60,603 nt of DNA, taken from contig JAUWZR010000001.1 of the NCBI GenBank assembly GCA_030615235.1, forward strand, positions 1 to 60,603. The letters are read 5' to 3'. A program made the translations under genes and the position numbers. Every line of letters starts with the position of its first letter. Position 1 is the first letter of the stretch. Below, in pieces: positions 31,525-55,379 of the stretch. The notes beneath the pieces were generated by a model. The model was not told the origin of the DNA. It ran no database searches and saw nothing but the letters and a program-made list of their open reading frames with translations. The DNA comes from Promethearchaeota archaeon (GTDB lineage Archaea > Asgardarchaeota > Lokiarchaeia > Sigyniarchaeales > SOKP01).

Positions 31525-31633
31525 TCATTTTCTAAAAACCAAGACTTATAAATAAATTCTATTATAAATTTTGTATAGAACGCATTAATAATGTGCTCAA
31601 AAAAGGAAACAAAACTAAAAGTATTGAGTGATT

Positions 31634-31789
31634 ATGACGCCCTTAGGTAACGAATTAAAAGATGAAATTAAAAAAGGTGTTACTCTCCAAAAGGTTGACG
31701 ATGAGGATATGAAAAAGCGTGAAGAAGAGAAAAAGAAACGAATGGAAGAATTAGAAAAAGTTAAAGAAGCCTTAGGAGCAAAAGATTAA
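31634..31789 (+). CDS. 51-aa protein with a WH2-like (actin-monomer-binding) motif; absent from the ORF track
   Basis: ATG at 31634 to TAA at 31787-31789. Product is MTPLGNELKDEIKKGVTLQKVDDEDMKKREEEKKKRMEELEKVKEALGAKD. NELKDEIKKGVTLQKVDD follows the WH2 pattern LLxxIxxGxxL[KR][KR]V plus acidic residues. Confidence 0.45.
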   Translation: MTPLGNELKDEIKKGVTLQKVDDEDMKKREEEKKKRMEELEKVKEALGAKD

Positions 31790-34163: not shown

Positions 34164-34796
34164 TTGATTGTAATGAGTCCAATTATAACGCATGAAGATG
34201 AACTTGAATTATCAAGTATGGAAAAAGAATTAGTGACCCAAATAAGGAAACTAGCAAAAACTCAGAGTACATTAATTGATTCTCAAAAAAAATACGCCGA
34301 AAATTTAAAAAAAGCAACACTTACTCGAGAAATGCTTAATAGAACATTTAGAGATGTATTGAAACACATGCAAACTCTAGTACGAGAGAGAAGATCAAAT
34401 ATTAAAGATAAAGAAGTGAAATTATACCAAGATATCATCCACAAAAACGATGAATACATAGAAGTAAACAACAAATATATTGATTCGATTAAAAACCTCG
34501 CCGTAAAAAAAGACTACTTAGTCGAAAAAAAATACGAATTTGCTTCGGCATTAAGCGAAGTAGCAAACAAAAGAAGCATGGTCATCAAAAAAGCATTATC
34601 TGTTGAGAAAAAAAAAAACAATTTAATCGAAGGAGAAAAAATGAAACTTTTAGAGTCTGGATTGAACGATTTGCAAAGAGACTTTGATCGTGCCCGAGAT
34701 ATTTTAATAAAAAAAATAGACCAATTTTTGCAGGTTAAGAACGAAGTAGATGAATTGTGGGTAAATTTGAAAAATAGCGTCAACAAATCAAGCTGA
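34164..34796 (+). CDS. Coiled-coil protein, function unknown
   Basis: 210 aa, Lys/Glu/Leu-rich heptad-like sequence throughout. Confidence 0.45.
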   Translation: MIVMSPIITHEDELELSSMEKELVTQIRKLAKTQSTLIDSQKKYAENLKKATLTREMLNRTFRDVLKHMQTLVRERRSNIKDKEVKLYQDIIHKNDEYIEVNNKYIDSIKNLAVKKDYLVEKKYEFASALSEVANKRSMVIKKALSVEKKKNNLIEGEKMKLLESGLNDLQRDFDRARDILIKKIDQFLQVKNEVDELWVNLKNSVNKSS

Positions 34797-34928
34797 CTTT
34801 AAACTTTTTTTTATTTTATTTTTGTACAAATTATCAAGTATGAACTTAAATTTATTAAATAGTTCAAATATATAATTATTAGAAAAAATACTTAGATAAA
34901 TCGCAATTATTAAATTAGAGAGAATAAA

Positions 34929-35366
34929 ATGGCAGAAGAATTCGCAAATTTCATGCAAGAAGCAAAAAAGGCTCCAATAGAAGAAAAACTAAACGCATTT
35001 GGAGACATTGTTGAAAGAATGATGTCTGTAATTCTAAAAATACCCGATTTAGTAGATCAGTCTTTAGCTACCGTAAATCAAAAAATATCTACATTGGAGT
35101 CGCGATTTACTACGATTAACAATGATTTATCAGCATTACGGACCAGGGGTGTTGGGGCATCCCCAGTAATCGCTGCACCTACTTCTCCAAACAACGCACC
35201 ACCTCCTTCTGGAGGTCCGCCCGGAGGTCCACCATCTCCGCCTGGGGGTCCACCTGGAGGTCCGCCACCACCAGGAGGTGCTCGTCCAGCTAGCCCTGTG
35301 AGCTTAAGAGGAGCGATAATGGGCGAATTAAAGCAGCTTTTTTCTAAGAGAAATCAATCCGGCTAG
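34929..35366 (+). CDS. Protein with a coiled coil, a Gly/Pro-rich tract and a short amphipathic C-terminal helix
   Basis: The N-terminal ~75 aa is helical. It is followed by PTSPNNAPPPSGGPPGGPPSPPGGPPGGPPPPGGARP, then VSLRGAIMGELKQLFSKR. The tract is encoded by a locally GC-rich imperfect GGAGGTCCNCC repeat at about 35205-35285. Confidence 0.6.
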   Translation: MAEEFANFMQEAKKAPIEEKLNAFGDIVERMMSVILKIPDLVDQSLATVNQKISTLESRFTTINNDLSALRTRGVGASPVIAAPTSPNNAPPPSGGPPGGPPSPPGGPPGGPPPPGGARPASPVSLRGAIMGELKQLFSKRNQSG

Positions 35367-35676: not shown

Positions 35677-37323
35677 GTGAGGGTTTTAAATAATTATTAT
35701 TATAAAAAAGCAAAGATCAAAAAAAAACTAAAACCTCTTGCACTAAAAAGATCTAAAGATGAGTTAAAAAATATTAAAAATGATGGAGATTGGCTTCACA
35801 CCGTTCCGCTAGCTTTAAACTCTTTAAGTGACGATTTGATTGTCAAGAAAGATTCTTTCAAATTTCCGGATAGTATAATTTTATTTGAGGCGTGGATGAA
35901 ATTAGGTTTTGGAGCGCTTTTTCCTAGATTAGCGCTCCATTACAAATTTCCTGGATTTTTAAAAGGAGAAAAAACGAGGAATGTTTTCCAATTCACATAT
36001 TCAACTTCTAGAGGTTTCGGATTCCCCATTTATTTTGGTCCAGAATTCTATGGGTATATCTTAACTATAGGTAAATTTTTAGAACCTTTGTTTAAATGGA
36101 GCCACACTATCTGTCACAGAGCAAATCAAGCGATTTATCTTGTTGGAAAAAAATATGGAATTACAAGACATCACCCTGGAGAATTTGAATCTGTAATTAT
36201 ATCAGAGTATAAAGACAACCTTTTTAAAGGAATTGACACCCTTTTACACGGTTATTACACGCAAGACCCAAAAACACTTGGTGTGTTTTCAAGTTTAGAA
36301 AATGCACTTGATAGCGTTATATTTTCTTATTCTGTAGGAGATCATGCAATGTCTGTCGAAAGCGAAAAATCAAAAGATACAATTAGCGTACCGTTAATTA
36401 CGCATGATACTATCGTTCGTAAATACAACGTGAATTTTTACGACTATTTAGATAACTTATTGGCAACAGAAAAGTTGATAAAAAGAAAGATCATCCGCTT
36501 TAAACAGCTAAGAAAAGATTTTATTAGTAATTTAAAGAGAATCGATAGAATTAAATTTAGGATCGATCAAACTAAATCATTTTCAGTTCCAAGTTTGAAA
36601 ATTTCTCAAAAATTTTCTAAAATTCAAGAATGTTCTCTTCATATTCGACTTATGGAAATAATTGTGAAGATGCTATGGACAACACCCCTTTATACCCATA
36701 CGATTCATAAAACTATTAGTGACGAAATCTATCTTCAAAATCAGAAACGAAATGATTTCATTACTGATTCTAATAACCTATCAATGGATTCAATTTTTTT
36801 ACTCTATATAAAAAAATTCGAAGAAATAAACTCATTTTCTTTCAAAGAAATGGAAGTTACCAATGAACTGGTTAAACTTAAAGACAAAATGGGGACTATG
36901 TGGCTTTATTTTAAGGAGAAACATTTCAATTTTGCTTTGAAAAAACTAAAGGATCTCTCTGTTTTATCGTTGGATGACTTAAGTTATAGAAAAGTTGTAA
37001 ACGAATACATAGACAACCTTATTCCTATTTTTTCAATTTATGAAATTTTTAATAGAGCTCTTTCAGAGTCAGTTTATCCAGAATCAGTTCCTCAAACAAA
37101 ACGGTTGGGAGGGTATTTAGCAAGTATATTAACTTCAAGGTTTAATCCCTTCGGAGTAAATCTAATGAATCTTTTTAATAAATTAGCATTTAATAACTGG
37201 AGCTATCTAATAATAAACCGAAAATTAAATCGAAAACAGTTTTTCAAATTGATAGTGAAACTTCCATTATGGAAAAATATTCCTAAAACTATTAAAAAGG
37301 AAATTTTGAACCCAGACTTTTAA
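35677..37323 (+). CDS. Hypothetical protein (548 aa)
   Basis: Long ORF with a GTG start and no motif I recognise. Confidence 0.5.
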   Translation: MRVLNNYYYKKAKIKKKLKPLALKRSKDELKNIKNDGDWLHTVPLALNSLSDDLIVKKDSFKFPDSIILFEAWMKLGFGALFPRLALHYKFPGFLKGEKTRNVFQFTYSTSRGFGFPIYFGPEFYGYILTIGKFLEPLFKWSHTICHRANQAIYLVGKKYGITRHHPGEFESVIISEYKDNLFKGIDTLLHGYYTQDPKTLGVFSSLENALDSVIFSYSVGDHAMSVESEKSKDTISVPLITHDTIVRKYNVNFYDYLDNLLATEKLIKRKIIRFKQLRKDFISNLKRIDRIKFRIDQTKSFSVPSLKISQKFSKIQECSLHIRLMEIIVKMLWTTPLYTHTIHKTISDEIYLQNQKRNDFITDSNNLSMDSIFLLYIKKFEEINSFSFKEMEVTNELVKLKDKMGTMWLYFKEKHFNFALKKLKDLSVLSLDDLSYRKVVNEYIDNLIPIFSIYEIFNRALSESVYPESVPQTKRLGGYLASILTSRFNPFGVNLMNLFNKLAFNNWSYLIINRKLNRKQFFKLIVKLPLWKNIPKTIKKEILNPDF

Positions 37324-43356: not shown

Positions 43357-44571
43357 GTGTATTTTGAACTGGATATAATTGAAGAAGTAGATGATATAGA
43401 AGGTAATGAAGACCAAAAAGAAAGGTTAGATGATTTTTTTAGAACATTGAATAATTATACAAAATTTGCAAATAAATTAAAAAAAACTAAATTATCACCT
43501 AATTTAACAATGCTCTTATATGGCCCTCCAGGCACAGGAAAAACATCATTAACAAGAGCTTATTCTCTAAAATATAATATTCCCATCTGTGTTGTAGAAT
43601 CTAATAGATTAGTCTCTTCTTTATTAGGTGATACAATTAAAAATATTCGAAGAGTGATTGAAATTGCTGCTGATATATCAAAAAAGAATGGTAATTTCAT
43701 TCTATTTTTTGATGAAATTGATGCGATTGGTTCCGAGAGATCTAATGTACATGAAGTCGGGGAAATTAAACGAGCAGTAATAGCTTTTTTGCAAACTATT
43801 GATTTAATTAGTTATAAAAGCCTCCCTTTAGCTATAATTGGGGCCACTAACCATCAGCAGCAACTAGATTCGGCAATATGGCGACGATTTACATTTCATC
43901 TTCAATTCGATTTTCCTAATTATGAAATTAGATCAAAAATAATAAAATCTTTTATAAAAAGAATAGAAGATGCTGGGATAGCAGTTAACGATTCTATTTC
44001 TGATGAAATCGATTTAGAATATAATAAAATTCGATTAATTATAGAAGGAATAGAAAATTCTGATGATAAATTAAATAATAATCTTATCATGAAGGAAGTT
44101 AAAAATCAGGAAATAAACGGATTAATTACATTAACTGATGGATATTCTGGATCTGATATTGAGAGAGGTGTAAGAGTTGCATTATTCAAAGCAATTGGCT
44201 CGTTTCCTACTGTTGAGAATATAGATTATGATATTCTTTATAAATCACTAAAGTTAGTTGGAGGAACAGCAGTTCATGTAAATCGACAGGAAATTCTCAG
44301 CCTCTCGGGTCCAAGTTTTGAAAAATTAGATGAATTTGATGATAAACTTGCTTTATCCGATTTTAATGTAGAATTTAAAAATTTTGAAGAATTGCTAGCA
44401 CAGTCACACAAATTAACACCAATATTAAAAGAAATTAATAATATCTTGGAACATCGGGAGGGTTTAAAAAATGATTATCATCAACGAATAAGTGAAGAAT
44501 TCGTAAACTTTATTACGACATTAAAAGATTTAAGCAAAATATTAAAAGATAAAAATATTGTAAAAGATTAA
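43357..44571 (+). CDS. Island gene 5: classic-clade AAA ATPase (Vps4/katanin/CDC48-module-like) with a C-terminal helical extension
   Basis: Walker A LLYGPPGTGKTSL, Walker B ILFFDEIDAIG, and a second region of homology GATNHQQQLDSAIWRRF. The frame is open upstream to an ATT at 43291, so the start is uncertain. Confidence 0.85.
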   Translation: MYFELDIIEEVDDIEGNEDQKERLDDFFRTLNNYTKFANKLKKTKLSPNLTMLLYGPPGTGKTSLTRAYSLKYNIPICVVESNRLVSSLLGDTIKNIRRVIEIAADISKKNGNFILFFDEIDAIGSERSNVHEVGEIKRAVIAFLQTIDLISYKSLPLAIIGATNHQQQLDSAIWRRFTFHLQFDFPNYEIRSKIIKSFIKRIEDAGIAVNDSISDEIDLEYNKIRLIIEGIENSDDKLNNNLIMKEVKNQEINGLITLTDGYSGSDIERGVRVALFKAIGSFPTVENIDYDILYKSLKLVGGTAVHVNRQEILSLSGPSFEKLDEFDDKLALSDFNVEFKNFEELLAQSHKLTPILKEINNILEHREGLKNDYHQRISEEFVNFITTLKDLSKILKDKNIVKD

Positions 44572-52397: not shown

Positions 52398-53921
52398 ATG
52401 TCAGATTTAACAACCCAAAACAAAATTTTAACCGTTTTAAGTAAAGCGTATCTCCCGTTAACAGCTAGGGAAATTTCTCAAATTGCAGAACTAAACATCA
52501 ATACTACTAGAACTATTTTACCACAAATGGTTAATAGAGGAGAAATTGAGCCAATAAAAATGGGTCCTGGGACTAAAAACTTATATATGTATAAAAAAAT
52601 CGAGGATGAAGGAACTGTAGAAATCCTTGTTATAGGAAAATGGATGAAGAAGAATTTAGAAAGTTATGAAAAAAAAGAAATAGAGGAACCTATTGAAGAA
52701 CAATTAGAATTAAAAAATCATTTAAATTTCAATTTATTTCAGTGTGTTGGCCTCATAAATTTCTATGATCTCCGAAAAATTTGTGGAATTCATAGATATA
52801 CATCCCCAGATAAAATAAATGAAATAGGAATGGGTGTGCAAAGACAAAGGCATGACAAATGGGTCGAGGAATTGAAAGAGGGATTAAAATCTTCCAAAGC
52901 TGAAATGTGGTCTACGGCAATAATATATTTTGATAAAGAAAAAATAGAATACACTAAACTTCGGGATTATAATGGTCAAGAAATAGGAGTTATAATCATT
53001 AATTATGATGGTCATGTATATGATGCTGAAAAACCAGGTTGGATTTTAGACGGACAGCAGAGAATGTGGGCTTTAGAGAATATCGCAATTGCTTCAGAAG
53101 ATCCAGATTCTCTGAAATTGACAGGACCAGTAACTATTGCTATTGGGGAATTTTACTACAAAGATATAGGAACTAAGCTTAATTTTATCCGAAGAACTTT
53201 TTCACATGCAAATAAAACTCAAAATCTTCCTAAGAATTTCAGGAAGGATTTAATAGGCACATTAGATGATTACAGTCAAGAAACAATGACCAAGAAAGAT
53301 AAAAAAGACGCTTTAATATCCTCAATAATTAGGTACTTAAATACAGATTATGATAGTCCTTTTAAAGAAATAATTGATATGCAAAATCGAGGTTTACCAA
53401 GAATTCAAGGAGAATTGATATCATGGGGGGCTATGAACTATATAATCCAAGAAATTTTAGAATATGAAGCGTTTAATAAGGAAGATTTACCTATTCCTGA
53501 ATCAGATAATCGATATAAATTTAATTTAGAATTAATTAAAGATTACTTCAATGCGATAAAATATATTTATCCATCTGAATGGGGGCAAACAGTTCAAAAT
53601 TCAAGGCTTCGGAGTAGGCTAGTGCTTTCTAGCTTTTCTATGCTTATTGGAAAAATACTGCATATTTCAATTGCGTTATCATCTGATCGCGAAACAAGAT
53701 TTAAGGAGATTGTTAGAGAAAATCTAAAAATTTCAGAAGATGAAAGAGTAAGTTTTGATGTAAACAGCCCATTGATACTAAACTTAAAAAACAATCAAGC
53801 TGATATAAAAACTTTAACCGAAAATTTAATAAAGATTTATGCTCAAAATTCCCAATATAATCCTGAAGAATTGTTAATTGTAAAAATTTATGAAGAATGG
53901 AGAGAATTACTGGAATATTGA
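52398..53921 (+). CDS. ParB/DndB/DUF262-superfamily protein (DGQ[HQ]R motif) with an N-terminal winged helix
   Basis: GVQRQRHDKWVEEL followed by WILDGQQRMWAL matches the QR ... DGQ(H/Q)R arrangement of DndB/DpdB-like DGQHR and DUF262 domains. The N-terminus LPLTAREISQIAELNINTTRTIL is HTH-like. Confidence 0.65.
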   Translation: MSDLTTQNKILTVLSKAYLPLTAREISQIAELNINTTRTILPQMVNRGEIEPIKMGPGTKNLYMYKKIEDEGTVEILVIGKWMKKNLESYEKKEIEEPIEEQLELKNHLNFNLFQCVGLINFYDLRKICGIHRYTSPDKINEIGMGVQRQRHDKWVEELKEGLKSSKAEMWSTAIIYFDKEKIEYTKLRDYNGQEIGVIIINYDGHVYDAEKPGWILDGQQRMWALENIAIASEDPDSLKLTGPVTIAIGEFYYKDIGTKLNFIRRTFSHANKTQNLPKNFRKDLIGTLDDYSQETMTKKDKKDALISSIIRYLNTDYDSPFKEIIDMQNRGLPRIQGELISWGAMNYIIQEILEYEAFNKEDLPIPESDNRYKFNLELIKDYFNAIKYIYPSEWGQTVQNSRLRSRLVLSSFSMLIGKILHISIALSSDRETRFKEIVRENLKISEDERVSFDVNSPLILNLKNNQADIKTLTENLIKIYAQNSQYNPEELLIVKIYEEWRELLEY

Positions 53922-54005
53922 TATATCTTAATTCCAATTGCTAATAAAATTTATAAAAATTACTATATTACCTGGATTAATATATTCGAAATCCTTTTAA
54001 TATTC

Positions 54006-55379
54006 ATGAAAAAGGATTTTGAATTGAAAGAAAAGACAGCTATAAATTTTCTTAAAAAGTACAATAAAAATGCTTATGTCTGTTTTTCAGGGGGTAAAGA
54101 TAGTCTAGTCGCCCTTGATTTAGCCATTAAAGGCGGAATTGATAATGTTGTATTTTGCGATACTACTATGGAATTTCAAGAAACTCTTGATTACATTAGA
54201 AGAGTAGAAGAATTTTATGATATAAGGGTGGAATCAGTGACTGCCCCTGTGCCATTTTTTGAACTTGTATATAAAATTGGGGTCCCATCGAGAAGATTGA
54301 GATGGTGTTGCAAGGTTTATAAATTTTCTCCACTCGCGGTATTCGCAAGAGAGAACAAGGTTAAATCTTATATAACAGGCTTAAGAAGTGAAGAGAATGT
54401 TAGACGTAAGCATTATAGCAAAAATGATGAGAATCATTTAATAGATTCAAAACAAATAAATCCTATTCTTGATTGGTCAAGTCAAGATATTTGGGATTAT
54501 ATTATGCGAAATAATCTACCTGTTAATCCACTGTACAATTTAGGATTTAAAAGAATAGGGTGTTGGCCATGCCCATTTAAATCTAAGGTAGATTGGAGTT
54601 TGATTAAGAAGTTCTTCCCAGATAAATCAAAATTACTAGATAAAACCTTGAGATCTATCTTAAAGAATTGCGAAGGTGTGGGAATTAAGAATTTAGATGA
54701 TTTCATAAAAAATTTTAAATGGACTGCTTATAGTAGGCCGCAAAACTCTGAATTACAAGGGAAAATAGAATTTATTGATGGTACATCTTTAATTCATTTA
54801 GAAAATACGAGCGATCTCAAAAAAGTAGAAAAAATTATTCCAATATTATCAAAAGAATATGAGGTAATTAGAAATTCGATTATGATAAAAAGCAAACTCC
54901 GCAAGCAAAGTCTCAAAATCCTCGTAGAAAAAGCTCTAAATTGTGTAGGTTGTGGTACATGCGTTGCTTTTTGTAAGTCTTTAAGAATAGAAAGAAACCA
55001 TTTAGTTGTTGATAGTCAAAATTGTACTTCATGTTTAAGATGTATTAAAACTAGTACAATGAGGGGAGCTTGTATAATGAGAAATTTTTCTCCATATCGT
55101 ATTGAAATTGGTACTTGCCAAAATTTTTCAGTAGAAAATGAAATTCCTTCATTAAATAGTCGTGTTGGCTTGATTAGAACAAGAGCTAAACTGGAAGATA
55201 TAATAGAAAAATTAGAAAAACATGCTGAAATTAAAAAATTCACTCAATATGTCTCCATAAAAAACGGAAAATTGTCAGCAACAGCATATAAGTCAAGAGG
55301 GTATGTGGAAATTAAAATTTACCCTAACAATAATGACTTAGAAATTACAATGAATTATTTCAGAGGGATAATCACTTAA
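54006..55379 (+). CDS. PAPS-reductase-family PP-loop ATP pyrophosphatase (DndC-like) with a C-terminal 2x[4Fe-4S] ferredoxin-like domain
   Basis: PP-loop VCFSGGKDSLVALDL, RWCCKVYKFSPL and GCWPCP blocks of the PAPS reductase/DndC family. CVGCGTCVAFC and CTSCLRC Cys clusters follow. Confidence 0.75.
   Translation: MKKDFELKEKTAINFLKKYNKNAYVCFSGGKDSLVALDLAIKGGIDNVVFCDTTMEFQETLDYIRRVEEFYDIRVESVTAPVPFFELVYKIGVPSRRLRWCCKVYKFSPLAVFARENKVKSYITGLRSEENVRRKHYSKNDENHLIDSKQINPILDWSSQDIWDYIMRNNLPVNPLYNLGFKRIGCWPCPFKSKVDWSLIKKFFPDKSKLLDKTLRSILKNCEGVGIKNLDDFIKNFKWTAYSRPQNSELQGKIEFIDGTSLIHLENTSDLKKVEKIIPILSKEYEVIRNSIMIKSKLRKQSLKILVEKALNCVGCGTCVAFCKSLRIERNHLVVDSQNCTSCLRCIKTSTMRGACIMRNFSPYRIEIGTCQNFSVENEIPSLNSRVGLIRTRAKLEDIIEKLEKHAEIKKFTQYVSIKNGKLSATAYKSRGYVEIKIYPNNNDLEITMNYFRGIIT

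Follow-up and report, generated by a model that had tools for sequence, protein, structure and literature searches.

Ena/VASP proteins are assembled from an EVH1 domain, a proline-rich region, G-actin-binding (GAB) and F-actin-binding (FAB) sites and a tetramerising coiled coil, and nucleation-promoting factors of the WASP/WAVE type, like other WH2 proteins, follow the order of an N-terminal helical assembly region, a long proline-rich region and a C-terminal amphipathic helix. In bacterial mimics such as BimA, VopL/VopF and TARP, the minimal recipe consists of oligomerisation, a proline-rich region and actin-binding peptides. To our knowledge, profilins and gelsolins are the only proteins so far known to regulate Asgard actin. 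Akil et al. write that the filament-nucleation machineries of these archaea 'have yet to be discovered', and by the same account those for elongation are still missing too (PMC9433394). Here we describe a gene, 34929..35366 (+), in a stretch of 60,603 nucleotides from a Promethearchaeota archaeon (contig JAUWZR010000001.1 of assembly GCA_030615235.1; hereafter the window), the 145-residue product of which (the target) belongs to an Asgard-specific family that is described in no database searched. The best supported reading of this family is that its members may be modular adaptors of the system formed by Lokiactin, membranes and small GTPases. For the target itself we tentatively propose an oligomeric adaptor that would follow an Ena/VASP-like logic and bind Lokiactin through its C-terminal helix in the manner of the VASP FAB, without being an Ena/VASP homologue. 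It is an attractive candidate in being small, highly conserved and unannotated in the databases searched, and in combining a putative oligomerisation helix with a tract resembling a profilin ligand and a helix resembling the VASP FAB, in a module that is repeatedly joined to gelsolin and to GTPases of Arf and Ras type.

The reading frame opens with ATG and encodes MAEEF...KRNQSG followed by a stop codon, and an AlphaFold2 (AF2) model, built with a 34-sequence alignment, bears out the three parts that a preliminary description of this gene had recognised, namely N-terminal helices, a Pro/Gly tract and a C-terminal helix. The N-domain (residues 1–73; 34929..35147, +) is delimited by model confidence, by invariant columns and by its recurrence on its own in fusions to gelsolin, Ras-like GTPase and leucine-rich repeat (LRR) regions. 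It is predicted to form a short helix (2–14) and then a long one (17–73), for which the block-mean predicted local distance difference test (pLDDT) is above 90 at residues 21–60 and 90 at 61–70, and, a helical hairpin or coiled coil in this model, it is probably a coiled-coil assembly module. The linker that follows (residues 74–123; 35148..35297, +) is rich in Pro, Gly, Ser and Ala and is predicted to be disordered, with a pLDDT below 50 over most of residues 76–123. The C-terminal motif RPASPVSLRGAIMGELKQLFSKRNQ (C-motif; residues 119–143; 35283..35357, +) contains a predicted amphipathic, basic helix at 126–143, which does not pack onto the N-domain in the monomer (predicted template-modelling score, pTM, 0.32). 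Against Pfam the whole protein gave only sub-threshold coiled-coil noise (Baculo_PEP_C), and NCBIfam returned no match for the target or for its BAR-like, 548-residue and 502-residue neighbours. The target has neither a signal peptide nor a transmembrane segment (the highest Kyte-Doolittle mean over 19 residues is 1.07), and the acidic N-terminus MAEEF together with the lack of a hydrophobic segment indicates a cytoplasmic protein. The alternative of a secreted or cell-surface Pro-rich linker protein, raised in the preliminary description, can be set aside on these grounds, the neighbours being cytoplasmic housekeeping genes.

A search of 5.8 billion proteins returned 217 homologues at E ≤ 0.01, all of them 'hypothetical', free of Pfam domains and labelled Lokiarchaeota or Promethearchaeota, and when one genome per species was scanned, at least 127 Asgard genomes proved to contain relatives. 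Since, in addition, 30 columns are invariant among 34 sequences that are 56–88% identical to the target, this is not a chance open reading frame (ORF). A profile search of 1.84 billion representative proteins extended the family to 186 clusters at E ≤ 1e-3, with members labelled Loki- or Promethearchaeota, Helarchaeota, Odinarchaeia and Njordarchaeota, so that a restriction to this one genome, which had been considered, does not apply. Domain and linker counts at the cluster level refer to the best 150 of these 186 clusters, 74 of which are stand-alone proteins of at most 200 residues with both the N-domain and the C-motif. The two ends of the protein stand out in the alignments as its conserved elements, the linker being variable. 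In the 82 distinct Loki-clade sequences drawn from the window and 82 fetched loci, the C-motif residues L, R, G, A, I, E, L, K, L and F are invariant, and L-R-G-A-I-(M)-x-E-L-K-x-L-F is invariant or nearly so overall; the N-terminal core MAEEFxxF...KAPxEEKxNxFGDxxExMM..IL.IPDL is as fixed as the C-motif, and the conserved core of the N-domain reads EEKLNAFGDIVExMMxxILxIPDLVDQS. Across the superfamily the C-motif has the consensus R-x-A-[IL]-[MNQ]-x-E-L-K-x-L-F-x-K-[RM]-[RK] and survives at 17–33% overall identity (52% for one closer pair); where the N-domains are about 20–30% identical, its E is invariant and its L-K nearly so. The closest genomic relative of the window, L003 (contig DATKTW010000134.1), shares its gene order and encodes a target protein 87% identical to ours. 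It was deposited under an actinobacterial label, 'Candidatus Nanopelagicaceae bacterium', probably through contamination or mislabelling of the bin, since the contig is clearly that of an Asgard archaeon.

The strongest evidence for the role of the family appears, from the predicted protein sequences, to lie in the fusion of its module to other domains. P0268 consists of the N-domain, a gelsolin domain and a zinc ribbon, and its gelsolin part matches 7WHG_G, which is the 2DGel of Lokiarchaeota, with an E of 9e-11, and human gelsolin with one of about 1e-5; P0295 has the order gelsolin, N-domain, zinc ribbon (the gelsolin domain matching PDB 7C2F_B at E 4.5e-4); and P0391, which is related to the target at E 6e-27 in BLASTP, carries the whole module, in which the linker is short and the motif reads SRGAILGELGQLFS, flanked by a gelsolin domain on either side, with a zinc ribbon after the second. 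A Ras-like GTPase precedes gelsolin and the N-domain in P0393 and a Ras-type GTPase is joined to the N-domain alone in P0274, while in P0289, P0341, P0329 and P0360 (399–464 residues) a GTPase of Gtr1/RagA-Arf type (Pfam E 1e-19 to 1e-24) is followed by the complete module, including SLRGAIMGELKELFAKKK. The N-domain also occurs with LRRs in P0315 and P0352, the former retaining the C-motif. Assembly chimeras are an unlikely explanation, as such architectures turn up repeatedly in separate clusters that stem from different data sources. The described Asgard gelsolins ProGel, 1DGelX and 2DGel (PMC7444086, PMC9433394) come from the same organisms, and it is to gelsolin domains of Loki and Thor type that the N-domain is fused, in P0391 together with the rest of the module; the target differs from them in lacking a gelsolin domain, and in the abundant Loki gelsolin proteins of about 300 residues (e.g. 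P0416) it is the C-terminal region that differs. The Thor protein 1DGelX, KXH72031.1, likewise has a coiled-coil 'domain X' of unknown function, which its authors suspect of binding the side of F-actin (PMC7444086). As a separate observation, the combinatorial proteins of Lokiarchaeia (P0391, P0393, P0395, P0407 and P0268) bring together a Ras/Arf-like GTPase, one or two gelsolin domains and the N-domain, and also a PYPYxFKPPEPPDD link and a C-terminal CxxC...HxC zinc ribbon. In one locus, L091, two GTPase genes directly precede an N-domain-gelsolin gene, and the last two genes overlap.

Gene contexts away from the Loki-clade block that contains the target point in a similar direction. In L085 a Roadblock-like gene comes after a member, and next comes the gene for an Asgard gelsolin with a match to 7C2H_G (E 2e-7); in genomes of Odin type a VTT/DedA protein, a member, a protein of 410–435 residues and a small GTPase are encoded on one strand; and in a Helarchaeota genome Roadblock-like genes flank a set of tandem paralogues. 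The link to actin regulation that the preliminary description had suggested is independently supported by gelsolin, bona fide Asgard domains of which are fused to the module and a gene for which lies two genes from one distant member; a likeness to VASP GAB or WH2 does not support it. One explanation for these associations is that the module serves as a scaffold for GTPases and makes no direct contact with actin or membranes, its N-domain and C-motif binding each other, in a head-to-tail assembly or an autoinhibitory latch, or binding Roadblock, longin or GTPase partners; the stand-alone protein would then be a regulator or decoy for the fusion proteins. That the module is repeatedly joined to Arf/Rag-like and Ras-like GTPases, as well as to LRR (Roco-like) regions, would fit this, as would the Roadblock-like genes that adjoin members in two unrelated contexts, the small GTPase gene downstream in the Odin-type loci, and the high conservation of both the N-domain and the C-motif, which is expected of a mutually fitting pair. 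However, the C-helix is free of the N-domain in the AF2 monomer at the low pTM given above, many fusions have the N-domain without the C-motif, so that each can work independently, and the Roadblock assignments, which at a Pfam E of 0.004 stay below the cut-off, are weak. We consider a pure scaffold of this kind unlikely.

The conserved C-motif was compared with known actin-binding sequences. The segment that had been likened to a G-actin-binding motif, VSLRGAIMGELKQLF (residues 124–138), falls inside the predicted helix 126–143, and against the VASP GAB pattern AIAGAKLRKV it scores 16, a value reached by 44–50% of shuffles and hence at chance level. A motif L-[KR]-[KR]-[VT] a few residues after an amphipathic helix is the hallmark of WH2 (PMC9433394, PMC10340426); none follows the C-helix, where LF-[ASN]-K-R-[KN] stands instead. 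Pfam recognises no EVH1, WH1, VASP_tetra or other Ena/VASP/WASP domain in the target, and its classification by sequence as a regulator of Ena/VASP or WASP type, for which EVH1, WH2 and an LKKV-type motif were looked for, finds no support. The comparison with the FAB was different. The C-motif GAIMGELKQLFAKRK aligns without gaps to the VASP FAB site, residues 259–278 (sequence from PMC10340426), with a BLOSUM62 score of 29–32 that only 2–11 of 3000 shuffles (0.07–0.4%) reach, although the peptide is short, the comparison was picked post hoc, and the choice of FAB among several actin-binding helices carries a multiple-testing penalty of perhaps 10- to 20-fold, so that the significance is overstated. 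An ESCRT-III MIM1-type motif was also considered; its charge pattern, judged by eye, is unfit and the resemblance was put down to chance.

It could be asked whether these likenesses reflect common descent, the target being a true homologue of Ena/VASP or WASP/WAVE and an ancestral nucleation or elongation factor of WH2 type, as the preliminary description had implied. A helical assembly domain, a proline-rich region and a C-terminal amphipathic helix are the parts from which Ena/VASP is also made, and their order mirrors that of nucleation-promoting factors of WAVE/WASH type; the FAB-like similarity of the C-motif and a conserved WH2-like mini-protein encoded 3 kb upstream (3M3N_W, E 0.13) would be in keeping with such an origin. 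Yet no EVH1, WH2, VASP_tetra or WH1 match was found in Pfam, the GAB/WH2 comparison lies at chance, the LKKV-type motif is missing and the domain order is unlike that of Ena/VASP. The best 150 profile matches are small proteins or module fusions, together with long repetitive proteins matched only in their coiled or proline-rich part, and no Ena/VASP or WASP protein was recognised among them, in a library that carries no names. Common descent is therefore highly improbable. What the target shares with Ena/VASP is a coiled coil, a region of GPPPPP type and a short, amphipathic, basic helix; it differs in having no EVH1 and no GAB/WH2, in its N-terminal coiled coil (helix 17–73) where that of Ena/VASP is C-terminal, in its length of 145 residues and in the absence of detectable homology. 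From WASP/WAVE it is set apart by the lack of an LKKV/T motif, of a Pfam WH2 match and of an acidic or Trp-containing Arp2/3-binding tail. The likeness to Ena/VASP would be at best a functional analogy, not membership.

Between the two conserved ends, the PPGG/polyproline tract PPPSGGPPGGPPSPPGGPPGGPPPPGG (residues 91–117; 35199..35279, +) lies within a linker of about 50 residues rich in P, G, S and A; it counts 27 residues and not 35 as first given. The imperfect GGAGGTCCNCC repeat that encodes it and the accompanying GC-rich patch were readily confirmed. Tandem Repeats Finder reports periods of 12 (consensus GGAGGTCCGCCC, 4.9 copies) and 33 (2.2 copies, 80% matches) at 35197–35269, and GC accounts for 66% of the linker DNA, against 35% in the N-domain portion and 30.5% over the whole window, because Pro and Gly are encoded by CCN and GGN codons. 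In the 82 Loki-clade sequences the linker has a median length of 50 residues and, apart from a single outlier of 73, measures 42–60. At least three GGPP/PPGG units are present in 73 of these 82 and a run of five or more prolines in 59; the target linker itself holds GGPPPPGG and several PPGG units, by sequence a proline region of the GPPPPP type seen in Ena/VASP. Elsewhere in the superfamily the linker becomes rich in P, A, T, Q and K, its composition not being conserved, and polyproline is a trait of the Loki clade, not of the family as a whole. The GGPPPPPGG-type tracts of this clade resemble the VASP profilin ligand used in PMC8410842, where Heimdall and Thor profilins bind the VASP peptide weakly. 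A P(S/T)AP ligand for Tsg101 was rejected, as P[ST]AP occurs in only 24 of the 82 members, inside a stretch rich in P, S, A and T, and was judged a chance occurrence.

We propose that the coiled coil of the N-domain would drive the formation of homo-oligomers, or pair the target with paralogues that share this domain, such as the gelsolin fusions and the Ras- and Arf-like GTPase fusions. The Pro/Gly linker, at about 50 residues, would act as a flexible spacer, and in the Loki clade its GGPPPPPGG-type motifs could dock profilin-actin or another proline-binding domain. The near-invariant C-helix may act as a short linear motif for holding a partner that is itself highly conserved, most likely Lokiactin, in the way of the VASP FAB. 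An oligomer would carry several actin-binding helices and proline tracts, which is a minimal logic for tethering, bundling or elongation of Ena/VASP type, and the target could act with the BAR-like protein encoded next to it at curved membranes. If Lokiactin is indeed bound, a eukaryote-style control of actin assembly, driven by adaptors and linked to GTPases, would predate the eukaryotes. An extension of this proposal, which we regard as quite improbable in its full form, is that the family is the missing Asgard actin-assembly factor, an oligomer with a Lokiactin-binding C-helix, a tract that feeds profilin-actin, a BAR-like partner and control by GTPases; it would then either foreshadow, in archaea, the protrusion logic of Ena/VASP and WAVE or have arrived at that logic independently. 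Within such a system, the role of a thymosin-like monomer binder could fall to the conserved WH2-like mini-protein whose gene lies 3 kb upstream.

A number of observations weigh against a Lokiactin-binding adaptor, beyond the penalty on the FAB comparison. Most of the fusion proteins stem from metagenomic contigs that are short, and since most gelsolin and Ras fusions have the N-domain only, with a zinc ribbon in place of the C-motif, the fusion evidence bears on the N-domain and not on the C-helix. With hmmscan the C-terminal 29–40 residues find no match to Pfam WH2 (PF02205) at E ≤ 10, and neither the C-terminal peptide nor a 24-sequence C-motif profile finds anything significant among PDB sequences, so that the C-motif has no solved relative there; no WH2 chain rises above the noise in the profile search (cordon-bleu at E 4.1), and the VASP FAB peptide itself gives nothing significant, the PDB apparently holding no chain with the VASP FAB site. 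A run of four or more prolines is present in only 23 of the 74 stand-alone representatives; with some 70% of these proteins lacking polyproline runs, profilin docking is not a conserved core function. Loki profilins, in the account of earlier work cited in PMC8410842 and PMC9433394, do not bind VASP polyproline. The idea that the poly-proline tract is a ligand of profilin type is thus favoured by the GPPPPP-type runs of the Loki clade and disfavoured by their absence from the wider family and by this negative report. The adjacency to the BAR-like gene is confined to a block in which everything is syntenic. Finally, the C-helix ends Arf-like GTPases and is moderately amphipathic and basic (hydrophobic moment 0.27–0.49, net charge +2 to +4), a character that suits membrane targeting and actin binding equally well.

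Another possibility is therefore that the C-helix directs the protein to membranes as the MinD and FtsA helices do, or is a functional equivalent of the anchor in the hypervariable region of eukaryotic small GTPases, with the linker as a stalk and the N-domain docking partners, in which case any connection with actin would be indirect. MinD and FtsA helices and the tails of small GTPases likewise have a flexible linker and then a short, basic, C-terminal amphipathic helix of similar moment and charge. The predicted helix of the target lies at the extreme C-terminus, and its moment and charge give a HeliQuest-type discriminant D of 0.9–1.8, a range that also holds for what we take to be the sequences of the MinD and FtsA anchors. 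The module ends Arf/Rag-like GTPases at the place where eukaryotic GTPases bear a linker and an anchor, its neighbours include membrane-associated proteins (the BAR-like protein, VTT/DedA in Odin-type loci and, beside one Arf fusion, an Rce1-like CPBP protease), and the composition of the linker is free to vary across the superfamily. Known membrane-targeting helices, however, preserve amphipathicity and not sequence, whereas this motif keeps R, A, I/L, E, L, K, L and F in Loki, Odin and Njord members alike, an invariant Glu among them, a pattern that suggests binding to a protein. By its hydrophobic moment the helix is only moderately amphipathic, and in P0391 the motif is internal, between the two gelsolin domains, a poor spot for a terminal anchor. 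On balance we hold a membrane tether to be the main rival to Lokiactin binding, possible if rather doubtful. Were it correct for the GTPases and gelsolins, Asgard small GTPases would reach membranes without lipid modification. In one locus (L090, 4483–6335) the gene for an Arf/Rag-like GTPase with a C-terminal module is followed, with an overlap of four bases, by an Rce1-like gene of the CPBP/CAAX-protease family. Rce1 processes the C-terminal tails of small GTPases in eukaryotes; the overlap is a single observation and may be due to chance.

In 79 of 82 loci the gene directly before that of the target encodes the BAR-like neighbour, a protein of 207 residues (34173..34796, +). Its AF2 model (pLDDT 91, pTM 0.76) is a three-helix bundle (7–71, 79–149 and 154–206), and the 16 best Foldseek matches in the PDB are all BAR domains, with template-modelling scores up to 0.66 and E-values of 2e-3 to 3e-2; they include SNX1/5 and arfaptin (0.60–0.66), FAM92A, Lsp1/Pil1 and Bin1. 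A BAR-domain-like fold can be assigned with high confidence as a prediction from the monomer. No Pfam or NCBIfam sequence match was found for this protein, which has 487 homologues at E ≤ 0.001, the best 120 of them nearly all of 207 residues; some JGI records name it 'coiled-coil DUF342 family'. When Lokiactin of L. ossiferum was co-immunoprecipitated, gelsolins, a profilin and a 38-kDa Arf, UYP48373.1, were recovered, and so, below significance, were two BAR proteins, including 'Bar1' (GNAMCCOK_01913, UYP45610.1, 24.73 kDa) (bioRxiv 10.1101/2025.11.30.690169). The mass of Bar1 is as expected for a counterpart of the BAR-like neighbour (24.36 kDa), of which it may be an orthologue. The gene after Bar1, 01914, was detected once in the L. 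ossiferum proteome. The stop codon of the BAR-like gene is followed by a T-rich run, read from the sequence at 34805..34823 (+), and A/T-rich, TATA-like stretches occupy 34850–34877 between this gene and the target. These features suggest that the target has a promoter of its own and may be transcribed apart from the BAR-like gene.

The coiled-coil neighbour (first given as 34164–34796) and the mini-ORF (31628–31789) that the preliminary description had brought in as context are both present. The argument drawn from them is weak, however, as the block runs in the order radical SAM, GNAT, mini-ORF, Pelota, radical SAM, 207-residue protein, target, (548-residue protein), Elf1 and following genes, and these 12 kb are syntenic throughout the related genomes. 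Since this holds in nearly every locus, we dropped the Loki-clade gene neighbourhood as functional evidence. The 548-residue gene (35677–37323, +), which has no Pfam or NCBIfam match, is downstream of the target in about two-thirds of the related loci and has the look of a variable insertion, the block around it being rigid; it is cleanly missing from some 26 loci, where Elf1 lies about 1.1 kb from the target, and its product is not an obligate partner for this reason.

The mini-ORF (31628–31789, +; 53 residues, with a likely start ATG at 31634) lies 3 kb upstream of the target and was found with tblastn in 64 of 82 related loci, with a nearly invariant core, EL[KQ]xEI[KR]KGVxLQKVD, and a charged helix after it. 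Of 177,635 PDB sequences, the tandem WH2 chain of N-WASP, 3M3N_W, matches it best, at a non-significant E of 0.13, and all three WH2 repeats align, LLDQIRxGxQLKKV against LKDEIKKGVTLQKV; it is not reported by Pfam WH2. It is a genuine, conserved small protein and plausibly an actin-monomer binder of thymosin-beta/WH2 type. For the rest, the window is core archaeal chromosome, encoding RNA polymerase subunit B, both PolD subunits (DP1 and DP2), Cdc6, RtcB, Pelota and Elf1. Among NCBIfam families, an AAA+ ATPase at 43357–44571 (+) agrees best with the anti-phage ATPase IteA (E 2e-53, well short of that family's cut-off) and less well with CdvC/Vps4 and the proteasome ATPases. Genes with DndB-like and PAPS-reductase domains follow further downstream (52398–55379), and a defence island may lie in this part of the window.

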